From assembly GCA_000092065.1 (NCBI GenBank), contig CP000593.1: a stretch of 64,000 nt of DNA. The stretch is one strand, 5' to 3'. The translations under genes were made by a program, and so were the position numbers. Shown piece after piece: positions 38,177 through 47,770 of this stretch (its first letter is position 1; each line of letters begins with the position of its first letter). Source of the stretch: Ostreococcus lucimarinus (Eukaryota). Under the pieces are notes generated by a model. It was not told where the DNA came from. It saw only the letters and a list, made by a program, of their open reading frames with translations, and did not search any database.

Positions 38177-41100
38177 TCACTTTTCCATCCTTGCCGCTCG
38201 TTTCTTTTTAGCCTTCTCTTCCTCTCGAGCGAGTTTCAACGACCTGGACGCGACGAAGCCTTCAAACGTCAAATCGCCCGTCTTCGCGATCGCCTCCTCG
38301 TCCGAATCGATGTCGTCGTCGGTGTCGTCTTGCGCGAGGATTTGCCTGCCATCGCGCCACTTTAACGTGGACTTTCGGTTGTCGATGCCGATGATCTTGG
38401 CCGTGACGTCGCGGCGAGTCTCGTCTTCTTCTTCTGACGAATATTCGGCCGTTTGCAAACGGTCGCCGGTGTCGGTGTCAAACAGCTCTCGACTTTGATC
38501 GTGGACGTTGCGAGCGACGAAAACATCGCTCCAAAATTGACGCCACACCGCATCGCCGGAGAGCGTACACGTGCGCTTATTGATGATGATCATCGCTTGC
38601 AAGATGAAACCGTATCGCTCGTCGATGGTGACGTTAATCTTCGGGGGCGTTCCTTTCCACTTTTTGACGTCGATGGGCTCGGTCCAGCCGTATTTCACCA
38701 CGCGACGGTTGTTCTCCTCCTTAAAAGCCGTCGACTCCACGTTGCGCGTCGCGATGAATCGCCGCCATCGCGACAAATGAATGGGTTTATTGAGTGTGAG
38801 CTTTTTCGTCTCCACGCTGCAATGCATGTAGGCCAAGTAGCGCATCAAATAAACAATTCCACCGCCCAACGCCGACCACGCGAGCATGTTCAAGATGAAC
38901 CAAACCGCGGGAACATTCACTATGTACGGCTGCACCGCTTCGACGGCCCATCGAATCTCGGTGAACGAAAGGTATTGCCCCGTGAATCGATCGAGAATGT
39001 CAAACGCGAGCGTCCCCGACAAAATCACTTGCGTCACCTCGAGCGTGGTGCTGTTGCGCGCCTGCGCTCGGAAAGCATCCTCTAAGTTTTTCGTCGTCCC
39101 TTCTATCGCCTCGTTGATGCGGAGCTTTCTTCGTGAGCCGATGACGGCGTTCATTTCTCGCAGAGACTCGAGATCGTTGACGCACGCCGCGATGACTTTT
39201 TCCAAGTCAACGGCGCGTCTTTGCAAGCGTTTCCACGACGGTTCCAACTGAAACAAGTCGTACAACACTTGCGACGCGCCGTCGCTCATATCCGCGCTCA
39301 ACTTTTCACGAGACGTGTCGACGTTTTCGAGCGACTCGAGCACGAACTGCTGAGTGGCGCTCAAGATCGTCACCGTCGTCGTGTGATCGGCGAGGCGCGA
39401 ACGAATGCGCGTTACGTTCGTCGGATCGATCTGATAGGTTTCAATCAACGCTCGCGTCTTCTTCAACTCGTCGTTCAGCGCGAAACAACTGCTGAAGACA
39501 CTTTTGATGAACAACGAGCGAGCTTGGAACGCTGAATATGTCGCGAGAAGCTTGTGATGACGTTCGGTGCGCGGACCAAAGACGACGACACCGCGTGAAC
39601 CAAAGACGATGACTTCTTGTTCGTTCAGGTCGTACGCGTAAAACGTCGCGCCGATGACTTGCTTGAGCTCGTTTTCGTTATCTTCACCATCCATGTACGC
39701 CGCGGCTTTCAGTTTTGGCGTCGCGCGCTCGGCGATGATGCACGTAAACTTGTCGCGATTGTCCGGCTCGCCCTTGTATGTGATGTTCAACATGGAGCGC
39801 TGACGCTCGGAAAATAAATTTCCCACCAGCGAGCTCGTGTCTTCGTGGACGTCGGAAAGTAAGCGCGCGAGTAAATCGACGCTGATATCGTTTCGAATTC
39901 GATCGGCGATGCCGTTGACGACGATGCCGTAAGTGATGGCGCCGTTTTCCCGAAAGTTGATGCCGAAAACCTCGATTTGCTGCTGCACCAAGTTACTCTT
40001 GGGCGCCCCGGTGGCGAGCAAGTCTGCCTCGACGTTTACGAATCGCGTTTCGTCGACGTCGAGGACTTTTAGCTCGGTTTTATTGTCGGCGTTGATCCCG
40101 ACCACCATGTTGAATTCGTCCTGCGTCGCGCTCGCTTCCGCGGTGAACATACCGCCCGCGACGCGGTCTCCCGTGCCGAGTTTTCTACAGAAAGAAACCA
40201 TTTCGTTCGATCCCATCGGCACGTATTCGGTGACGATGATTTTCACCGAGTCGAGCAAGATACTTTCACTCAGGCGCGGGTCGCGAATATCGCGACTACT
40301 TTGAACGGCGCCGCCGAGCACGCGTTTTGCCTTTTTGTGCCCGTTCAACGCGTTCGGTGTGAACGCATCGGAGCTCAGCATGTGCGGAGGGATGTACGGA
40401 GACGAGACGTACGGCACGTCTTCGACGTCCGTGATGGTGGAGCGGATGCGGACCCCGATCGAGGGGACGGTGAGGAAAAAATCCGAGGACTCGCGGTCGT
40501 ACCGCACCTCGAGGAGGTGACCAGCTTCGTGCACCAACGAATCTACCGACTGGCGCATCGCGCTCGTGAACCGTCCCGAGGCCGTCATCCTCTGCAAGAA
40601 TTCGCTCCCCTTCTTGGAAATCTTCAACAACGTCGAGTGATCGTACGTCTCGCTCGTCACCTTGAGCGCCGTGATGAAACCAAGCTCACGCAAATCGTCT
40701 AAATCGTCTCGTCCCTCTTCCGAGACGTTCAAATACCTCGGACACGCTCCAAATATCTTTTCTGATTTTGGCGCGTAATCGTAATCGAACACCGCGTTTC
40801 GCACGATGCCCTCGTACACGAGCACCAGGAGCGGCAGCTCGCGAATCCAGGGAGAACGTTTGTTGTTGTTGTTGTTGGAAACCGCAGACTTCGACTTCGA
40901 CTGTTTCTGAGACGCGTCGGTGTACAAACTCAGCATGTACAACAATTTCAACGCCTCGGGCGATTCCTCCATCTCCCGCTCGCGCGACTCGACTTCCCGC
41001 CGACGCCGAGTCGTGGACGAGGCGGAAGTGCTCGAGTCGGCGTCTGAAGCGCTCGAGTCCCGGGCGTCCCGGGCGTAGTGCGAAGAATCATCGTCATCAT

Positions 41101-41236
41101 CGTCATCGTCGACGCGAATCGTTGCGTCCGAATCCGAATCGTAGCCCTGCGGCGCCCCGCATTCCGCGCACGTCGCCGCGCCGCCGCGCACGACGGCCCG
41201 GCACGTCGCGCACCGCGTCGAATCCATCGTATCCAC
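38177..41236 (-). CDS. Large conserved-looking hypothetical protein (1019 aa) with N-terminal Cys4 zinc ribbon, acidic tracts and C-terminal hydrophobic segment
   Basis: It is a single long ORF with normal codon composition. CATCRAVVRGGAATCAECGAP is a CxxC...CxxC motif. D/S/E-rich linkers follow, and there is a predicted TM segment PAVWFILNMLAWSALGGGIVYLM. I could not assign it to a named family. Confidence 0.6.
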   Translation of the reverse strand: MDTMDSTRCATCRAVVRGGAATCAECGAPQGYDSDSDATIRVDDDDDDDDSSHYARDARDSSASDADSSTSASSTTRRRREVESREREMEESPEALKLLYMLSLYTDASQKQSKSKSAVSNNNNNKRSPWIRELPLLVLVYEGIVRNAVFDYDYAPKSEKIFGACPRYLNVSEEGRDDLDDLRELGFITALKVTSETYDHSTLLKISKKGSEFLQRMTASGRFTSAMRQSVDSLVHEAGHLLEVRYDRESSDFFLTVPSIGVRIRSTITDVEDVPYVSSPYIPPHMLSSDAFTPNALNGHKKAKRVLGGAVQSSRDIRDPRLSESILLDSVKIIVTEYVPMGSNEMVSFCRKLGTGDRVAGGMFTAEASATQDEFNMVVGINADNKTELKVLDVDETRFVNVEADLLATGAPKSNLVQQQIEVFGINFRENGAITYGIVVNGIADRIRNDISVDLLARLLSDVHEDTSSLVGNLFSERQRSMLNITYKGEPDNRDKFTCIIAERATPKLKAAAYMDGEDNENELKQVIGATFYAYDLNEQEVIVFGSRGVVVFGPRTERHHKLLATYSAFQARSLFIKSVFSSCFALNDELKKTRALIETYQIDPTNVTRIRSRLADHTTTVTILSATQQFVLESLENVDTSREKLSADMSDGASQVLYDLFQLEPSWKRLQRRAVDLEKVIAACVNDLESLREMNAVIGSRRKLRINEAIEGTTKNLEDAFRAQARNSTTLEVTQVILSGTLAFDILDRFTGQYLSFTEIRWAVEAVQPYIVNVPAVWFILNMLAWSALGGGIVYLMRYLAYMHCSVETKKLTLNKPIHLSRWRRFIATRNVESTAFKEENNRRVVKYGWTEPIDVKKWKGTPPKINVTIDERYGFILQAMIIINKRTCTLSGDAVWRQFWSDVFVARNVHDQSRELFDTDTGDRLQTAEYSSEEEDETRRDVTAKIIGIDNRKSTLKWRDGRQILAQDDTDDDIDSDEEAIAKTGDLTFEGFVASRSLKLAREEEKAKKKRAARMEK

Positions 41237-41463: not shown

Positions 41464-41577
41464 TTGTGCGTATGCATAAACAGTCTTCCTTAACTCAGCT
41501 GGTAGAGTGTCAGACTGTTAGGAAAAAGTCTCCGTCGAATATGACGGCTGCTCCGATAGAGATCTGGAAGCCGCGGG
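41464..41577 (+). tRNA. tRNA-Asn(GUU)-like sequence with a 41-nt insertion (intron-like) between positions 37 and 38; possibly a pseudo-tRNA or SINE head
   Basis: The cloverleaf can be drawn by hand. Acceptor TCTTCCT pairs with AGGAAGA and the discriminator is G. D-arm ACTC-AGCTGGTA-GAGT has G18G19 and an A-box-like TAACTCAGCTGG. The anticodon stem is TCAGA/TCTGG and the loop CTGTTA|A carries anticodon GTT. The T-arm GCGGG-ATCGAAA-CCCGC is B-box-like. T5 lies ~25 nt downstream. Unusual features are U1-A72 and A54. Confidence 0.4.
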
Positions 41578-41700
41578 ATCGAAACCCGCAGGAAGAGATG
41601 TGTCGACATCAAACCTTACTTTTTCCCATACCCGATTGTCCGTGATGGAAAAGCGACACGACAACACTGTGACTTTCGTCGTTTCGGGGTGACGGATAGT
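41464..41700 (+). mobile_element. tRNA-derived SINE-like repeat, copy 1 (full length with tRNA-like head)
   Basis: A ~222-nt body from gctggtagag to tatcgct is near-identical to 47434..47655. It ends in an A-rich tract (actttaaaaaatttatcgct) and is followed by T9 and a GC inverted repeat. Confidence 0.6.
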
Positions 41701-41840
41701 ACTTTAAAAAATTTATCGCTATGAGTAATAAAAATAAACTTTTTTTTTGAGTTGGGGCACCCCAACATGATAAAACCGCACATCGACGTTGATGTACCGC
41801 ATGTAAGATTTCTCCAGAACCAATCGTGTGAGTGAAGTGG

Positions 41841-42338
41841 TCAAGCCAAGCCGCGTAACTCATCTACCGTAAATTGATACTTGTCGAGACTGCGCTTCGA
41901 AGGCAGCGTGCCGCGCGCTCGGGCATTCTTGAGGCACGTCTTGCGCAGTATTCCTTTTGCGTGCTGCTTGTAATAATTGAGTTGTCTGTAGTTACCATCG
42001 CCGCCGTCCCGCTTCGGCGTATATTGAGCTCTGCTGTAGGCTGGACTCTCGTCCACGTTCTCGCGGCACGCGTGTTTCTGGCTGCGTCCAGCAGCTCGGG
42101 AGTTGAATAAGCCGTCACGCTTCTCTCTCATGTAGGCACCTTTACGTTGATGGAGCTCTCCAGCTGGAATGTCCTTTTCGAGAACTCTCACGTCCGCGTC
42201 GCCAAACGTGAAGATTGGATGTCGTGCGTATTTATGCGAGGCAAGGCGCGCTCTGAGCGAACCCGTCGTCGATCCGATGTACGTTTTGTTACATTTCGCA
42301 TTATCGCTAAACATTTCGTACACGCATCCCGACGGCAT
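41841..42338 (-). CDS. Free-standing GIY-YIG endonuclease-domain protein (homing-endonuclease/viral-like), located in a low-GC island
   Basis: MPSGCVYEMFSDNAKCNKTYIGSTTGSLRARLASHKY matches GIY-(x10)-YIG-ST..L..R...H. A downstream ...LFNS... supplies the conserved Asn region. The C-terminal 70 aa are basic. The ORF GC (~52%) is well below its neighbours (~68%). There is no RING, so it is not SLX1. Confidence 0.6.
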   Translation of the reverse strand: MPSGCVYEMFSDNAKCNKTYIGSTTGSLRARLASHKYARHPIFTFGDADVRVLEKDIPAGELHQRKGAYMREKRDGLFNSRAAGRSQKHACRENVDESPAYSRAQYTPKRDGGDGNYRQLNYYKQHAKGILRKTCLKNARARGTLPSKRSLDKYQFTVDELRGLA

Positions 42339-42521
42339 TTGTCCTGGTTACCTATCTATCCCTAAGAAAATATTGTTGCCAAAAGTGCCTCCTCCTGCGG
42401 TTTGCAGTCACATCCGAGAGACCATAGGTACGCGTATCGCTGCGTGGGCTGCAAGGTCCGGAATGTAGATACCGAACCGCCTGATTTCACACCTGGACGT
42501 TCGTGATCCGTCGAGACCTGA

Positions 42522-42710
42522 CGAAATGACGAACTTGTTTTGTCGTCCACAAATTCGTCAACCCGTCGTTCGGTGACACTTTGTGTGTACCAATGATGAA
42601 AATGACGAAATGTTAAAATATTTTAATGTTTATTTTTATTTTAGATCTATGACAAGCAACAGTGTGGACCTTTATGAAAACAGTTCGTCATTCGTCATTT
42701 CGTCAGGATC
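42522..42710. repeat. Inverted repeat pair (ctgacgaaatgacgaac ... gttcgtcat(tcgtcat)ttcgtcag) flanking an extremely AT-rich ~150-bp spacer, with a third direct copy (gaaaatgacgaaatg) inside
   Basis: The ~17-bp arms are reverse complements of each other, and the spacer is >75% A+T. Confidence 0.5.
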
Positions 42711-42772
42711 CAAACCATGGTCTTTTTGGTGTCTCGTTGAGTCTTCATATTGCAAATGTACGAATTACAAAA

Positions 42773-43069
42773 TTAGTATGAGCACCAGACGACCGCCGGC
42801 GCGAGCTCCGTCTCCCCTGTGTACCCATTGTCCTTCAGCCACTCGAAGCACCCGTCGCGGTGAATTTCCCAATAGACGCCCTTCTCGTCTCTACCTTGCC
42901 TCAGGTGGTCCTCTTCCATTGGGACCCTGTGGCCCTTTTCCTTCTTGAAGAAGTCCTTGAGCTTATTGCCGACCTTCGTCGCGCTATCTTGACCGCGCGC
43001 AGCCGCTGGCAACCACGTCTGGTATTCGATGAAGATGTCACTGTGTGCATAAAAATGACTTGCGCTCAC
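42773..43069 (-). CDS. Small ORF (98 aa) of unknown function downstream of ZNG1; it may be UTR rather than a gene
   Basis: The ORF opens with GTG and has no ATG until codon 51. Its composition is not GC-skewed (...GVYWEIHRDGCFEWLKDNGYTGE...). A TGTAA on this strand follows directly after its stop. Confidence 0.25.
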   Translation of the reverse strand: MSASHFYAHSDIFIEYQTWLPAAARGQDSATKVGNKLKDFFKKEKGHRVPMEEDHLRQGRDEKGVYWEIHRDGCFEWLKDNGYTGETELAPAVVWCSY

Positions 43070-43169: not shown

Positions 43170-44810
43170 TCAGACTAAGCCGTCGTTTTGAGAGGGCGCC
43201 GACTTTGCCTTTGGTTTTGCCTTCGACTTTGAAGTGGGTTGCGGCCTGATCTCCTCTTCGATCTCCTCGTCGTCGACCAAATCTTCGTCGATTTCTTCGT
43301 CGTCTTCGTCATCGACTTCGTCGTCTTCGTCTTCGTCGTCTTCGTCTAGAAAGACATCACCCATGACTGCTCTCCAGCCATCAGAACCCATTTCGAATTC
43401 TTCGTCGGTCAAGAGGCAAGAGTCCAACGTTGATTGAATTTCATCGTATTTAAGATCCTTGCCAATGAACACCAGTTCTTGTCGGCGATCACCATAAGGC
43501 CCCTCCCAGTCTTTACGAAGTTCTTGCTTTATCCCCTGTGAGCCGACCCAAGCATTTTTATTCAGCGCGGTCCATCGGCTTGATCCTTCGAGAGAGTAAA
43601 TATTACCAGCCTGACTGAAAACAATTATCAAGTCGTGGGCATCACTGAGCCACGTTACACCCTTCGAACGTAGCAGCACACCAATTTCACCTTCCCTTTT
43701 ACGGCGCTTGAGTTTCATCGCTTCTTGTCGCGCTCGAATATCTTTCACTGCACTCCAGTCTACACTTGGTGTCTCTTCATCTTTTTCTTCATCACGGTCA
43801 TCGGCCTCGAGGGAGCTGAAGAAGCGCTCGACAAATGAGCCTAAAAACCGTTTGGGATGAAAAGGTCTTCTGGCTCGGTAAATGAAAGACGTAATACCGA
43901 ACCGACTATCGTGACGTGTTTGGGAAGAACTTGGTGCAAGCGTGACCTCGCTTAAGGCTGTTTCTCTCATGCGAGCTCGCTTACAGCATGGAGACTCACC
44001 TTTGTCCCTAGCGCCGGCGCAGCATGACTTCACAGATGTTGCTTCTATCTCTTGTTCCCATGTTATGAAACCAGCAAAGTCATTCTCTTTGTAAAGTTTT
44101 GTATTGACGATTCGCGTAACGTCGATCGCGCCGTTCACAGCTTCAAGAATATCAGCACGTGAATTGAGAAGTTGTATCTGCGCTTTAATCTCGGCGAGTT
44201 GTTCGTCATCGACAGTGTCGACCTTGTTCAATACGACGACATTCGCGTACTCTATCTGTTCAGCCAACAATTGAGAGTAAGACTGCCTGTTCACAGCTGA
44301 CGCCCTGAAAGAATCAATCATGTCGAGAAAGTCACCTGCAGCGATGACCGTCACGCACGTATCCAGCCGCGCCAGTGTGCTCAAATGTTCATGCTCATCA
44401 ACGTGCGCAGCTTCATGATCGTGATCGTCCTCACAATTTGCGAAGAGTTTCGCAATTTCCGCCGGTTCCGACACTCCTGATGCCTCTACGATCATGTAGT
44501 CAAAATTGCCACTCTTGGCCATGTCCCCGATTTGTTTTACAAAGTCTCCGCTCAACGAACAGCACACGCATCCGTTCTGCATGGCAACCACCTCGTCGCT
44601 CTGCAGCAAAGCGGAATCATCGATTAATTTTTTGTCGATGTTCAACTCCGCGACGTCGTTCACGACGACGGCACACCGAAACTTTCCGTTCGCGTCTCGC
44701 TTAGCTTCGAGCACGCGTTTCAGAGTTGTCGTCTTCCCAGCGCCGAGGAACCCGCACAGCGTTGTCACCGGCAATCGATTATGATTGGCGATTGCGGCGG
44801 GTGTGGACAT
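43170..44810 (-). CDS. ZNG1: COG0523/CobW-family GTPase (ZNG1-like zinc metallochaperone) with acidic C-terminal tail
   Basis: PVTTLCGFLGAGKTTTLKRVL is the P-loop. The CxCC metal-binding motif is present in ...MQNGCVCCSLSGD.... A CobW_C domain and a D/E-rich tail follow. The ATG is at 44810. Confidence 0.85.
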   Translation of the reverse strand: MSTPAAIANHNRLPVTTLCGFLGAGKTTTLKRVLEAKRDANGKFRCAVVVNDVAELNIDKKLIDDSALLQSDEVVAMQNGCVCCSLSGDFVKQIGDMAKSGNFDYMIVEASGVSEPAEIAKLFANCEDDHDHEAAHVDEHEHLSTLARLDTCVTVIAAGDFLDMIDSFRASAVNRQSYSQLLAEQIEYANVVVLNKVDTVDDEQLAEIKAQIQLLNSRADILEAVNGAIDVTRIVNTKLYKENDFAGFITWEQEIEATSVKSCCAGARDKGESPCCKRARMRETALSEVTLAPSSSQTRHDSRFGITSFIYRARRPFHPKRFLGSFVERFFSSLEADDRDEEKDEETPSVDWSAVKDIRARQEAMKLKRRKREGEIGVLLRSKGVTWLSDAHDLIIVFSQAGNIYSLEGSSRWTALNKNAWVGSQGIKQELRKDWEGPYGDRRQELVFIGKDLKYDEIQSTLDSCLLTDEEFEMGSDGWRAVMGDVFLDEDDEDEDDEVDDEDDEEIDEDLVDDEEIEEEIRPQPTSKSKAKPKAKSAPSQNDGLV

Positions 44811-44867
44811 GATGTACGGCGATCGACGTCTCCGCGCGCGAACGAGCCGAAGAGGCGTCGCGAAGTG

Positions 44868-45142
44868 CGGCGATGCGCGCGCGTCGTGCACGTGTCGACG
44901 ATTCGCGTCGTGCACGTGTCGAGGATCGTCGTACGCGACGCCCCGCGAAGCCCATCACGGATCGCGTCGCGACGCGCGTCGTAAACATGTCGACACGCAT
45001 GTCGACATATTTACCCACGCGCGTGTACGCATTGAACCCCGTGATGCATCTATATACGAAAAACGTCTCGACGCACATGTCGACATATTTCGACATATCC
45101 AAGTACCACCGAGATGTGTCGACACTGCGGCGGATGTCGACA
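44868..45142. promoter_or_regulatory. Cluster of GTCGAC-centred palindromes (5x [A]TGTCGACA[T], plus a 2x 23-nt tandem cgtcgtgcacgtgtcga(c/g)g) in the ZNG1/ZIP bidirectional promoter
   Basis: ATGTCGACA occurs at ~44987, 45000, 45078, 45117 (as TGTGTCGACA) and 45135. Two copies extend to CATGTCGACATATTT. The tandem repeat with CACGTGTCGAC lies at ~44875-44925. Confidence 0.55.
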
Positions 45143-45368
45143 TTTTGTCGTTCGCGAGTCGTGACTTATAAACGACCGCCCTCCATCGCGCCGGTTCGGT
45201 TCGTATGCCGCTTTAGTTTGTGCGCAGCCGCACTTACCGACGCCGGCGAAGACGACGACGACGACGGAAACGATGACGAACGAAAACACGAAGAACACGA
45301 AGACGACGATGCCGCCGCGCGAACGCGCACGCGGTGCGAGGACGGTCGAGCGACGACGAGGGCGAACG

Positions 45369-46802
45369 ATGCGCTGCGCGAGCGCGCTCGGTGGTGGCAT
45401 CGCGATCGTCGCGAGCGCGCTCGCGCAGCGCGGCGCGCACGCGTCCGGCGCGCACGCATTCGAATGGGCTGGAATCTTTGAGACGCCAGAGAATGAATAC
45501 GTGTGGCAGGCGCAAAAGGTGGCCGATAAGTACGCCGCCGATACCATGAAAATGGTCATCTACGACGAAATCGCCGCCGGACACGACGAGCTCGAAGCCC
45601 GCGAGGATAGCGGTGATACCGCAATCGGGGGAGCTTGTACGACGGCTAAGATACGAGATAGTGTTTTGACACCTGATAGTGGGTGTGTCAACCTTGAATT
45701 TGACAACACCTGGCACACGACGCCGTTTAAGATTAATACGACTGGCATCGACGCGATCTCAATCTTCGCTGAGCACGTTCCCACCGAGTTCGAGCGCGAC
45801 GCGCACTATCTCAAGGACCTCCACGGAGATGACGTGGTGCCAAAAGCTTCACTTCCCGAAGCATCCACCGTGAGCGAATCGAAATCAAAACCGTGGGCCA
45901 ACGCCATTGGGGCGGCAATTATCGTCAATATCGTCACACTTTCTGGTGTGGTCTTTCTCATCCCGAGTATCGCTAAGAAGCAGAAAGCGTACCCTGAAAC
46001 TGTGAGTTGCACAATTAACTCGTTTGCCGCCGGCGCACTTCTTTCGGCTGCGTTTTATCTGATGTTCTACGAAGCCACGCATTTAATCAAACCTGCTGGC
46101 TCGGATGAGGCAGAGCAGACCGCATGGTGGGCTTCCGCTTCTATCTTCGGCTTTCTCATGGCCTACTTCATCGACTTTGGTATCTCTGTCGTGTTCCCAA
46201 CTCTTGGAAATACAGCGAAGACAACCGATGCGGAACTTGCAGTCAAAGGCGCTCAAGATGACTGTGATACTTGTACTTGTAACTCACACAAGTATCGCGT
46301 TCGAAGTGGTATCATTCTTGGAGATTTCATGCACAACCTAGTGGATGGTATTTTCATTGGCTTCGGCTTTCTGAACTGCGACAGTACCATGGGATGGTCG
46401 ATCACCGCCGCGACCGTCTATCACGAAATCGCTCAAGAGCTTGCTGACTACTTGGTGCTCGTAGACCCCTTCCAGGGCGATCTCGCGCCGTTGCCGACGC
46501 TGACTTTAAACTTCGTTTCCGGCTTGAGTGTCATTCTTGGCGTCCTCATTAGTGTTGGATCGGGAAATAACAACGACTTCTGGCATGGACTGCTGCTCGC
46601 CTTCGGTGCTGGAGTCTATCTGCAAATCGCCGCCGCAGAGTGCATGCCCCGAGTATCAGTGAGCGCCACTTCACCTCGTCTTCGCGCGACGAGCATTCTC
46701 ACCTTCATCGTCGGCGTTGTTGCCATCAGTCTCGTGCTCCTCAACCACAAGCATTGCACAGGCGGTGGCGGTGGCGGAGACTCACACGCACACGCGCACT
46801 AA
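45369..46802 (+). CDS. ZIP (Zrt/Irt-like) family metal transporter
   Basis: MRCASALGGGIAIVASALA is a signal peptide. Multiple TM segments follow. HNLVDGIFIGFGF and YHEIAQELADYLVL are variants of the ZIP TM-IV and TM-V motifs HNFxDGLAIG and HEIPHELGDF. The C-terminus has a His-rich stretch HKHCTGGGGGGDSHAHAH. Confidence 0.75.
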   Translation: MRCASALGGGIAIVASALAQRGAHASGAHAFEWAGIFETPENEYVWQAQKVADKYAADTMKMVIYDEIAAGHDELEAREDSGDTAIGGACTTAKIRDSVLTPDSGCVNLEFDNTWHTTPFKINTTGIDAISIFAEHVPTEFERDAHYLKDLHGDDVVPKASLPEASTVSESKSKPWANAIGAAIIVNIVTLSGVVFLIPSIAKKQKAYPETVSCTINSFAAGALLSAAFYLMFYEATHLIKPAGSDEAEQTAWWASASIFGFLMAYFIDFGISVVFPTLGNTAKTTDAELAVKGAQDDCDTCTCNSHKYRVRSGIILGDFMHNLVDGIFIGFGFLNCDSTMGWSITAATVYHEIAQELADYLVLVDPFQGDLAPLPTLTLNFVSGLSVILGVLISVGSGNNNDFWHGLLLAFGAGVYLQIAAAECMPRVSVSATSPRLRATSILTFIVGVVAISLVLLNHKHCTGGGGGGDSHAHAH

Positions 46803-47369: not shown

Positions 47370-47433
47370 CAGGTGCCCATCGAGTTCCTTGTATTGCTTC
47401 AATCTCGTCGCGGTATCTCTGTAAACAATTTTG

Positions 47434-47655
47434 CTGGTAGAGTGTCAGACTGTTAGGAAAAAGTCTCCGTCGAATATGACGGCTGCTCCGATAGAGATCT
47501 GGAAGCCGCGGGATCGAAACCCGCAGGAAGAGATGTGTCGACATCACACCTTACTTTTTCCCACACCCGATTGTCCGTGATGGAAAAGCGACACGACAAC
47601 ACTGTGACTTTCGTCGTTTCGGGGTGACGGATAGTACTTTAAAAAATTTATCGCT
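47434..47655 (+). mobile_element. tRNA-derived SINE-like repeat, copy 2 (5'-truncated, begins in the D-loop)
   Basis: It is ~98% identical to 41478..41700. It lacks the first 14 nt of the tRNA-like head. It is followed by a 12-bp palindrome, CCCCCATGGGGG. Confidence 0.6.
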
Positions 47656-47770
47656 GTGAGATTCACCCCCATGGGGGGAGCTCGGCTTCCCTGATTTTTT
47701 TGTCACTTTTTCACGACGCCGCGAACCCCTCGTCCCGAACTCCGAGACGCGACGCGAGACATCCATCCCA

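Follow-up and report, generated by a model that had tools for sequence, protein, structure and literature searches.

In the green alga Ostreococcus lucimarinus, a gene for a COG0523 GTPase and a gene for a ZIP metal transporter stand head to head around one short intergenic region, which raises the question of whether the two are controlled together, by which metal, and since when. We addressed this question in a 64,000-nucleotide stretch of contig CP000593.1 (assembly GCA_000092065.1), hereafter the window. An earlier note, made from the sequence alone, had read the pair as a conserved functional linkage between a ZNG1 zinc chaperone and a ZIP importer. The pairing proved to be real and functionally meaningful, yet as a pair it is neither ancient nor conserved, and the most informative feature of the locus, a cluster of palindromes between the two genes, was absent from that note. 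With moderate confidence, we propose that the 558-bp region between the two genes is a bidirectional metal-deficiency promoter, most likely for zinc, with a recently captured chaperone gene.

The COG0523 and ZIP genes form a genuine divergent pair

Two long, uninterrupted open reading frames (ORFs) faced away from each other, one on the minus strand (43170-44915) and one on the plus strand (45273-46802). The minus-strand ORF matched the Pfam families cobW (PF02492, 6e-41, 140.4 bits, cut-off 20.7) and CobW_C (PF07683, 1.5e-18, 66.9 bits, cut-off 22), and the plus-strand ORF matched Zip (PF02535, 1.2e-21, 77.7 bits, cut-off 35.1). The two genes, on opposite strands, and the region between them are as follows.

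43170-44810, minus strand: long-type COG0523 (G3E) GTPase, 546 aa (Pfam, NCBIfam and homologue alignment)
44811-45368, no strand: shared intergenic region, putative bidirectional promoter (sequence; conserved blocks in five Ostreococcus lineages)
45369-46802, plus strand: ZIP transporter, 477 aa, XP_001420991.1 (Pfam Zip and exact protein match)

The 477-aa product was an exact match to XP_001420991.1, recorded as 'ZIP family transporter: zinc ion' in strain CCE9901, which bears out the guess of the earlier note that the DNA belongs to the Mamiellophyceae. Judging from the alignments, the GTPase almost certainly starts at the ATG at 44810 and is 546 aa long, because this start coincides with the N-termini of all homologues, because the 546-aa product was called on 15 independent contigs, and because homology to the paralogous copies begins only at 44833-44842. 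Together with the ZIP start at 45369, this sets the intergenic distance at 558 bp (462 bp if the ZIP gene is counted from an upstream in-frame ATG). The pair was found at 99-100% identity on independent metagenome contigs (L001, L005, L008 and L021), and three others (L010-L012) also matched it as far as they extend; it is therefore no assembly artefact. By our own estimate, which assumes about 8000 genes with some five COG0523 and six ZIP genes among them, the chance that any ZIP gene directly neighbours a COG0523 gene is <1%, making adjacency by chance unlikely. The head-to-head placement of a CxCC-bearing COG0523 GTPase and a ZIP gene around one short promoter, as the earlier note had described it, was thus upheld by the Pfam matches, the motifs and the independent contigs.

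Five perfect zinc deficiency response elements occupy the putative shared promoter

The imperfect palindrome RTGTCGACAY is known as ZDRE, short for Zinc Deficiency Response Element, and is bound by Arabidopsis bZIP19 and bZIP23 upstream of ZIP4-type genes. Three groups of elements were recognized in the intergenic region.

44880-44926, no strand: two copies of a 23-nt repeat, CGCGTCGTGCACGTGTCGA[CG]GAT, with a CACGTG G-box in each, on the COG0523 side (repeat search)
44987-45143, no strand: cluster of the palindrome RTGTCGACAY (ZDRE), with five perfect matches that start at 44987, 44999, 45077, 45116 and 45134
45157-45173, plus strand: GAGTCRTGAC half-palindrome, then TATAAA (invariant columns in the five-lineage alignment)

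Seven perfect ZDREs were present in the window against 0.43 expected, a number reached in none of 100 shuffles, and five of the seven were packed into 157 bp between the two genes. The other two lay in the duplicated flank of a tRNA gene (see below) and one of them is mutated in contigs from the wild, so we took both to be chance occurrences. Four other Ostreococcus lineages carried two or three copies each upstream of the orthologous ZIP gene. In O. tauri (L004) there were three, all between a bZIP gene and the ZIP gene, and no others in 21 kb; L002 had two, and a further one at the 5' end of a cobW gene; L003 had three, plus one just past the 3' end of the bZIP gene; and L029 had two, plus one between the ZIP gene and a ferric-reductase gene. 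When the five lineages were aligned, two ZDRE cores (the window copies at 45116 and 45134) and the GAGTC..GAC block were invariant and the rest had diverged, which constitutes a phylogenetic footprint. The half-palindrome with the TATAAA box that follows it in the window is likely to be the core promoter of the ZIP gene, and the 23-nt repeats with their G-boxes might also have a function. A match of the promoter to the Rfam family BTH_s1 (24 bits, gathering score 74) was dismissed as a chance hit driven by the palindromes. Full-text literature searches returned no report of ZDREs in algae.

A bZIP gene faces the ZIP gene in other Ostreococcus lineages

On chromosome 6 of O. tauri, the order is cobW (431 aa, minus strand), bZIP (209 aa, minus strand), ZDREs and ZIP (plus strand), the ZIP protein being 84% identical to that of the window. 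L002 has the same gene order, and L003 and L029 have the bZIP-ZIP pair with no cobW gene within reach. Since a bZIP gene stands opposite the ZIP gene in all four of these lineages, the conserved head-to-head pair is bZIP-ZIP; a COG0523 gene, of a different paralogous group, lies one gene beyond the bZIP in just two of the four. The conserved divergent linkage of COG0523 and ZIP proposed earlier therefore did not survive comparison, as the bZIP takes the COG0523 position in the other lineages, the long COG0523 gene itself recurs at a second locus and the ZIP gene has alternative partners on wild contigs. In L029, a ferric-reductase gene and a gene for a eukaryotic SBP_bac_5 protein adjoin the bZIP-ZIP pair.

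In the ZIP-adjacent bZIP proteins (type 1), the basic region was NRAAVRRYRERKR and a ELELKDFLEEYFTHGDACPC motif stood in the C-terminal part; the paralogous proteins (type 2) had the basic region NKRAVKRYRDRQR, the motif HGAGCPLG and FLKEFLVHEDGKCPCPG. Both types, encoded outside the window, agreed with the F-type basic region GNR[AE]AVRKYREKKK at the contact residues N, A, V, Y and R (N-x2-A-V-x2-Y-R), which are identical in the algal proteins and the F-bZIPs, and the NRAAVRRYR segment of the ZIP-adjacent type matches plant F-bZIPs. A profile search over 1.8 billion representatives recovered land-plant F-bZIPs, with their CTHTHTCNPP...HTHTCVHVHT sensor and GNR[AE]AVRKYREKKKAH basic region, and the best matches outside the family all carried NR[AE]AVR[RN]YR. 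In a published table of sugar-beet bZIPs, only two of those listed have the F-type basic region. The algal bZIPs shared a conserved C-terminal H-x-D-x-C-P-C motif (FTHGDACPC or VHEDGKCPC). The candidate regulator thus has the basic region and the cis-element of the F-bZIP system and departs from that group in its sensor motif.

The cluster responds to metal status in O. tauri

Expression was assessed with fold changes that we computed from the supplementary tables of Lelandais et al. (2016), in which O. tauri was kept for one week at 54 or 1080 nM Fe-EDTA in Aquil medium. At the lower concentration, transcripts of cobW (ostta06g02290) rose 8-17-fold, those of the ZIP gene (ostta06g02310) 3.4-5.9-fold and those of the bZIP gene (ostta06g02300) up to about 4-fold, and this joint rise indicates that the cluster is co-regulated by metal status. 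Joint regulation of the two window genes by metal limitation, as the earlier note supposed, is plausible, given the five ZDREs and the co-induction of ZIP and COG0523 in O. tauri.

In the scheme that we favour, the five ZDREs, palindromic and hence free of orientation, would serve two genes, the plus-strand one for the ZIP importer and, in this strain, the minus-strand one for the ZigA-like COG0523 metallochaperone GTPase, so that uptake and chaperone capacity would be raised together when the metal is scarce. The small bZIP with the F-bZIP-type contact surface would probably read the ZDREs and activate transcription in both directions at low metal, and its C-terminal His/Asp/Cys motif may sense the metal. 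The ZIP protein would bring in the metal and the GTPase would hand it to client proteins. The identities of the genes, the enrichment and conservation of the motif, the boundaries of the cassette, the second locus and the joint induction in O. tauri were observed, whereas we infer the binding factor, the sensed metal, the client of the chaperone and the direction of transfer of the COG0523 gene.

Several observations weigh against this scheme. The stimulus behind the induction of the O. tauri trio was low iron in EDTA-buffered Aquil, not zinc limitation, and the expression evidence comes from O. tauri. Lelandais et al. (2016) filed the ZIP gene under iron uptake and stressed a strong and unusual connection between iron and zinc. 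COG0523 subfamilies differ in metal and in client (Haas 2009), and an iron-responsive subfamily exists in other algae. The match between algal bZIPs and F-bZIPs was weak (E values of about 1e-5 to 1e-3) and mostly confined to the basic region, and ATF4-like bZIPs also scored with the profile. The N-terminal Cys/His zinc sensor motif of the F-bZIPs was absent from 19 of 19 aligned algal proteins, and no type-1 bZIP was found for O. lucimarinus, where only the type-2 protein XP_001421642.1 was recovered (encoded, with its HAD neighbour, on a separate 468-kb chromosome in CCE9901). No perfect ZDRE lies directly upstream of O. tauri cobW, and a ZIP homologue of another protist, at 50% identity, had neither a ZDRE nor a divergent partner; the more distant ZIP homologues on L024-L028 likewise had neither, so that the conservation of the element, as far as shown, is within Ostreococcus.

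The first of these points is also what an iron-responsive module would produce, that is, one in which the ZIP protein imports Fe(II) or mixed metals, the COG0523 protein is an iron-related chaperone and the palindrome has a meaning different from that in plants. Besides the response of all three O. tauri genes, the two G-boxes of the promoter, the bHLH gene directly after a second COG0523 copy (L016, L019 and L020) and the ferric-reductase gene next to the ZIP gene in L029 fit such a module. Nevertheless, we consider it unlikely, for the cis-element is exactly the zinc-specific ZDRE of plants, the adjacent factor has the contact residues of F-bZIPs, and the nearest curated GTPase family is the Zur-regulated zinc chaperone ZigA. 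Moreover, the iron-responsive COG0523 clade is confined to chlorarachniophytes, diatoms, dinoflagellates and one euglenid, and iron limitation may disturb zinc status secondarily.

The GTPase is a long-type, ZigA-like COG0523 protein

Membership of the COG0523 family was clear, as both Pfam domains scored above their gathering scores and the protein carried a Walker A motif of the form GxxGxGK[ST] (GFLGAGKTT) and a CxCC motif (GCVCC; C81, C83 and C84), both invariant in the homologue alignment. With invariant columns drawn from the Cymbomonas, Hondaea and Nitrospirales homologues, the protein further showed an invariant His-rich CEDDHDHE..H loop, a second cysteine cluster CC...PCC (C263/264 and C275/276), a TRH..RFGITSF.Y.ARRPFHP block and an acidic, Lys-rich tail. 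Features of this long subfamily were common to Cymbomonas, Hondaea, diatoms, ichthyosporeans and metagenome-assembled genomes (MAGs) of Nitrospirales, at 46-53% identity; for diatom homologues the range was 44-56%. The best NCBIfam match was ZigA (NF038288), with 288.2 bits in three stretches, below the 600-bit cut-off for equivalogs; the protein is thus no ZigA equivalog, although ZigA is its best-scoring family. On these sequence comparisons, we call it a ZigA-like long COG0523 protein. The 431-aa COG0523 protein of O. tauri had its best NCBIfam match in a YjiA-type model, and the YjiA-like proteins that O. tauri and L002 encode near the ZIP gene were 30-32% identical to that of the window.

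The list of COG0523 homologues fell from 97-100% straight to 53% identity with nothing in between, in contrast to the ZIP protein, which had a graded series of orthologues at 79-91%, and the homologue search found no long-COG0523 orthologue outside the O. lucimarinus group. From this gap, set against the graded ZIP series, it follows that O. tauri and the other Ostreococcus lineages lack the long COG0523 gene.

The label ZNG1 in the earlier note was not supported. ZNG1-type proteins are zinc-regulated in other eukaryotes, and the window protein has the general family features, namely the GTPase motifs, CxCC and CobW_C, as expected if it were the eukaryotic ZNG1 orthologue that metalates methionine aminopeptidase, in an ancient pairing with ZIP. 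Against such an identity stand the best curated match to ZigA, the identity of only about 30% to the compact YjiA-like paralogue, the subfamily insertions (the CC...PCC cluster and the His-rich loop) held in common with Nitrospirales, Cymbomonas and Hondaea, the lack of an orthologue in O. tauri or other Ostreococcus, and a gene arrangement that is not kept in relatives. No protein named ZNG1 or CBWD was among the best 120 COG0523 matches. The N-terminus, MSTPAAIANHNRLPVTT, also lacks a motif like CPELVP, the METAP1-binding mark of ZNG1, although this is a point of low weight. There is thus no sign in the sequence that the GTPase is ZNG1, and we regard that identity as very improbable.

A viral origin of the COG0523 gene was likewise considered and rejected, since a scan of IMG/VR gave no relative and tblastn against phage records gave only YjiA-like matches at 32% identity or less. 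Long-type COG0523 genes had a patchy distribution, in a few bacterial groups and many eukaryotes. In two marine Nitrospirales MAGs (L031 and L034), the long-type protein was 46-49% identical to that of the window and an ORF of the Zn_ribbon_8 family lay upstream; in L034, genes for a CDF transporter and MerC were nearby. This context is suggestive of a metal-related role, although not diagnostic.

The COG0523 gene probably entered the locus as a mobile cassette

The cassette boundary and the elements around the pair are as follows.

44833-44842, no strand: 5' boundary of the COG0523 cassette (blastn break-points)
41720-43069, minus strand: remnant of a virus-like mobile element (94.8% identity to L013 13536-14789)
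41484-41597, plus strand: tRNA-Asn (GUU) with a 42-nt intron (Rfam tRNA, 49 bits, gathering score 29; missed by ARAGORN)
41498-41725, plus strand: left copy of a 228-nt direct repeat (3' part of the tRNA-Asn and about 128 nt downstream; 99% identity)
47433-47660, plus strand: right copy of the 228-nt repeat, with a 5'-truncated copy of the tRNA-Asn

Homology to a second COG0523 locus (L013-L020) and to L022 stopped 32 nt before the ATG, at 44842, and homology to contigs with an Irt1-like ZIP gene in place of COG0523 started at 44833. The second copy (98.8% nucleotide identity, 510 aa) lay in a low-GC context near the end of long-read contigs of 584-611 kb, head to head with a 950-968-aa gene of no known kind; it had a ZDRE of its own about 254 nt upstream, in surrounding sequence unrelated to that of the window. 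Beyond it were the same 98-aa ORF and GIY-YIG ORF as in the window, and a 733-aa primase-helicase (DUF5906; PHROG DNA primase, 2e-32). In the window remnant, the GIY-YIG ORF is at 41841-42338 and the 98-aa ORF, at 42773-43069, corresponds to a D5-like primase-helicase gene (DUF5906/Prim-Pol) cut down to its 3' end; the counterpart on L013 (13536-16721) runs on into the 733-aa DUF5906/DNA-primase protein. The GIY-YIG cluster had 898 members, including at least three CCE9901 accessions, and the 98-aa ORF was found on 257 contigs. Taken together, these ORFs have the look of a family of virus-like mobile elements in Ostreococcus genomes.

Among contigs that encode an identical ZIP protein and share the right flank of the window, three different left-hand arrangements were seen. 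In the first, that of the window (also L005), COG0523 is flanked as described above; in the second (L001, L008 and L021), an APC11 RING gene follows 9 nt past the COG0523 stop; and in the third (L006, L007 and L009), an Irt1-like ZIP gene with a GHGHGHGHG loop and a type-2 bZIP gene replace COG0523 from 44833 onwards. The second and third come from short-read metagenome assemblies, and, should a second copy of the ZDRE promoter lie upstream of the Irt1-like gene, the third may be a chimera. The COG0523-ZIP pairing is recent, apparently polymorphic and mobile; its recency is supported by the gap in identity among the COG0523 homologues, by the near-identical second copy with its homology from 44842 and by base composition (see below). 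The ZDRE-ZIP unit, present in five Ostreococcus lineages, is old and its COG0523 partner new. The cassette, about 1.65-2.6 kb long and beginning 23-32 nt upstream of the ATG, would have been copied from, or exchanged with, the low-GC primase-helicase/GIY-YIG region.

Base composition was examined in the same light. The GC content at third codon positions (GC3) of the COG0523 gene, 0.525, was the minimum of the window, where ordinary genes had 0.71-0.83, and that of the second copy was 0.505; this lends weak support to an origin in a low-GC region. The ZIP gene had a GC3 of 0.61. We rejected the idea that low GC proves a horizontal origin of both genes, since for the ZIP gene the orthologue in O. 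tauri has an equally low GC3 (0.58). Low GC3 may instead reflect the low expression reported in the O. tauri study.

The two 228-nt repeats bracket a 5.9-kb low-GC block (41.5-47.7 kb) in which the element remnant, COG0523 and ZIP all lie, and this geometry resembles attL and attR sites at a tRNA gene. For a reading of integration at tRNA-Asn by a site-specific integrase, neither an integrase nor an empty site was found, and the repeat runs 128 nt past the tRNA.

If the locus is simply fragile, the adjacency of the two genes might be a neutral by-product of mobile-element rearrangement, of no use for co-regulation. Such a view is in keeping with the sharp cassette boundaries, the primase-helicase/GIY-YIG flank, the second locus, the low-GC block between tRNA-derived repeats, the other partners seen in wild contigs (the RING flank and the Irt1-like ZIP) and a mosaic ZIP allele (see below). 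It has to contend, however, with the 23-32 nt of 5' leader that came with COG0523, which is so short that the gene must use the ZDRE promoter, and with the ZDRE upstream of the second copy as well. Furthermore, every partner found at the promoter is a metal-homeostasis gene (the long COG0523, the Irt1-like ZIP, or the bZIP followed by a YjiA-like COG0523), which makes random insertion very unlikely. We therefore hold a neutral origin of the adjacency to be distinctly improbable, and prefer the capture of a chaperone gene by a metal-responsive promoter.

The ZIP transporter belongs to a widespread protist subfamily

The ZIP protein had a signal-peptide-like N-terminus and an extracytoplasmic domain of about 180 aa. 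The fourth transmembrane segment (TM4) carried HNLVDG (residues 322-327) and TM5 carried HEIAQE (residues 352-357), in which H322, N323 and D326 together with H352, E353 and Q356 align with H177, N178 and E181 and with Q207, D208 and E211 of the binuclear metal site of BbZIP (P210 of BbZIP is also covered by the alignment). With the Zip domain, the TM4 pattern H-N-x-x-D/E-G and these TM5 metal-site residues, it is a member of the ZIP (SLC39) family.

The fifth residue of the TM5 motif was Gln in 119 of the 120 best ZIP homologues, which came from prasinophytes, haptophytes, pelagophytes and others, and most had Ala for Pro. HE-x-[AP]-Q-E thus marks a subfamily of ZIPs that is widespread among protists and is nothing peculiar to this alga, and we drew no conclusion on selectivity from HEIAQE, although the earlier note had suggested that this non-canonical motif may alter the choice of metal. 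In the LIV-1 group, the TM5 motif is HEXPHEXGD. The window protein reads HEIAQELAD, with Gln for the second His, and so lies outside that group.

Allelic variation was also observed. On L021 and L022, the ZIP gene is a mosaic relative to the window, with a 5' half 99-100% identical and a transmembrane 3' half (window 45825-46802) only 71-89% identical; the COG0523 gene on the same contigs is 99-100% identical, and on L022 the promoter segment 44842-45095 is replaced. The mosaic suggests that the locus has undergone gene conversion or introgression. In another protist, a 1.69-Mb contig (L024, GC 0.42) held a tandem array of ZIP homologues, with four full-length 458-aa copies and one disrupted copy at a period of about 2.6 kb and no ZDREs.

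Other features around the locus

The wild contigs carried insertions of 86-88 nt in both tRNA-Asn copies that are absent in CCE9901 (at window positions 47523 and about 41500; L005 12150-12235 and 6023-6120). They start with GTAAGT, hold an ACTGAC branch-site-like motif and end with CAG, and look like polymorphic, spliceosomal-intron-like, possibly introner-like, sequences in an RNA polymerase III gene. Left of the tRNA gene, the minus-strand gene at 38177-41236, which makes up the left-hand portion of the lower-GC stretch (GC 0.56), encodes a 1019-aa protein with no Pfam match in our scan; its counterpart on L005 is annotated with the MJ1567 and MJ1566_N families. Two proteins encoded nearby, JmjC and GIY-YIG, were identified by exact look-up as XP_001421140.1 and XP_001421138.1, respectively. 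The ZIP, JmjC and GIY-YIG proteins (41.8-48.9 kb) each have two GenBank/RefSeq accessions on two records (e.g. ABO99284.1 and ABP01263.1), which suggests that the deposited assembly contains two copies of this segment.

Relation to known metal-homeostasis systems

The closest parallel is the bZIP19/bZIP23-ZDRE-ZIP4 circuit of Arabidopsis, which has the identical 10-bp palindrome, repeated several times, upstream of the gene for a ZIP importer, and in which, as in the algae, a small bZIP with the contact residues N..AV..YR and a conserved Cys/His motif is available (in Ostreococcus, as the candidate regulator). The algal bZIP differs in lacking the N-terminal CxHTHTCNP...HTHTCxHxHT and having the C-terminal motif instead, regulator and target are physically clustered, in some lineages also with a COG0523 gene, and the target ZIP is of a different subfamily (HE-x-A/P-Q-E). 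In plants the response to zinc deficiency is known, whereas here there are a ZDRE sequence match and low-iron RNA-seq.

Divergent pairs that are co-regulated from a short shared promoter are also known from fungi. In PRA1-ZRT1 of Candida albicans and aspf2-zrfC of Aspergillus (PMC3386192), a ZIP importer is likewise divergent with a zinc-homeostasis partner; however, that partner is a secreted zincophore rather than an intracellular GTPase chaperone, the regulator is Zap1/ZafA acting on the ZRE rather than a candidate bZIP with ZDREs, and the fungal synteny is ancient whereas the window pair is recent and apparently polymorphic. In bacterial Zur regulons (zigA, zagA/yciC and yeiR), a COG0523 metallochaperone accompanies a zinc importer at low zinc (Haas 2009). 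Here the unit is a eukaryotic bidirectional promoter and not an operon, the protein falls well short of the ZigA cut-off, and it bears additional Cys clusters as well as an acidic tail. Among marine and freshwater algae, diatom ZCRP-A and Chlamydomonas 123019 and 117458 are COG0523 proteins induced at zinc (or cobalt) scarcity; no physical linkage to a ZIP gene is reported for them. The O. tauri cluster ostta06g02290-02300-02310 shares the orthologous ZIP gene and the same ZDRE upstream region, and it is there that co-induction was measured; it differs in that the bZIP faces the ZIP gene and the COG0523 protein is of the YjiA-like type.

What is new here is the ZDRE/F-like-bZIP signature in a chlorophyte, together with the modular recruitment of chaperone genes. 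F-bZIPs were described as absent from green algae, with O. lucimarinus named (Castro et al. 2017; Assunção 2022), and reviews place them, and by implication the ZDRE circuit, with land plants; the locus offers a candidate sensor, cis-element and regulon. This suggests that the zinc-sensing circuit of plants arose before land plants did, even though the COG0523-ZIP pairing is recent. More tentatively, and with slightly more doubt than belief, we put forward that the F-type bZIP/ZDRE/ZIP circuit of land plants predates them and runs in Mamiellophyceae as a regulator-importer-chaperone cluster, in which sensing would proceed through the C-terminal H-x-D-x-C-P-C motif and the ZDRE promoter would be a docking site to which genes of metal homeostasis are recruited time after time, here a ZigA-like COG0523 gene on a mobile cassette.

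O. tauri is genetically tractable, with homologous recombination and luciferase reporters available. For reporter constructs, the unaltered ZDRE stretch is TGTCGACA and the substituted version is TGTAGACA. Zinc and cobalt scarcity shapes ocean productivity, and the locus bears on how eukaryotic phytoplankton sense zinc. It is also a natural experiment in which a promoter gained a new co-regulated gene by way of a mobile cassette, and if it should prove true that the ZDRE answers to iron in an alga, this would be informative on how the meaning of the element has evolved.

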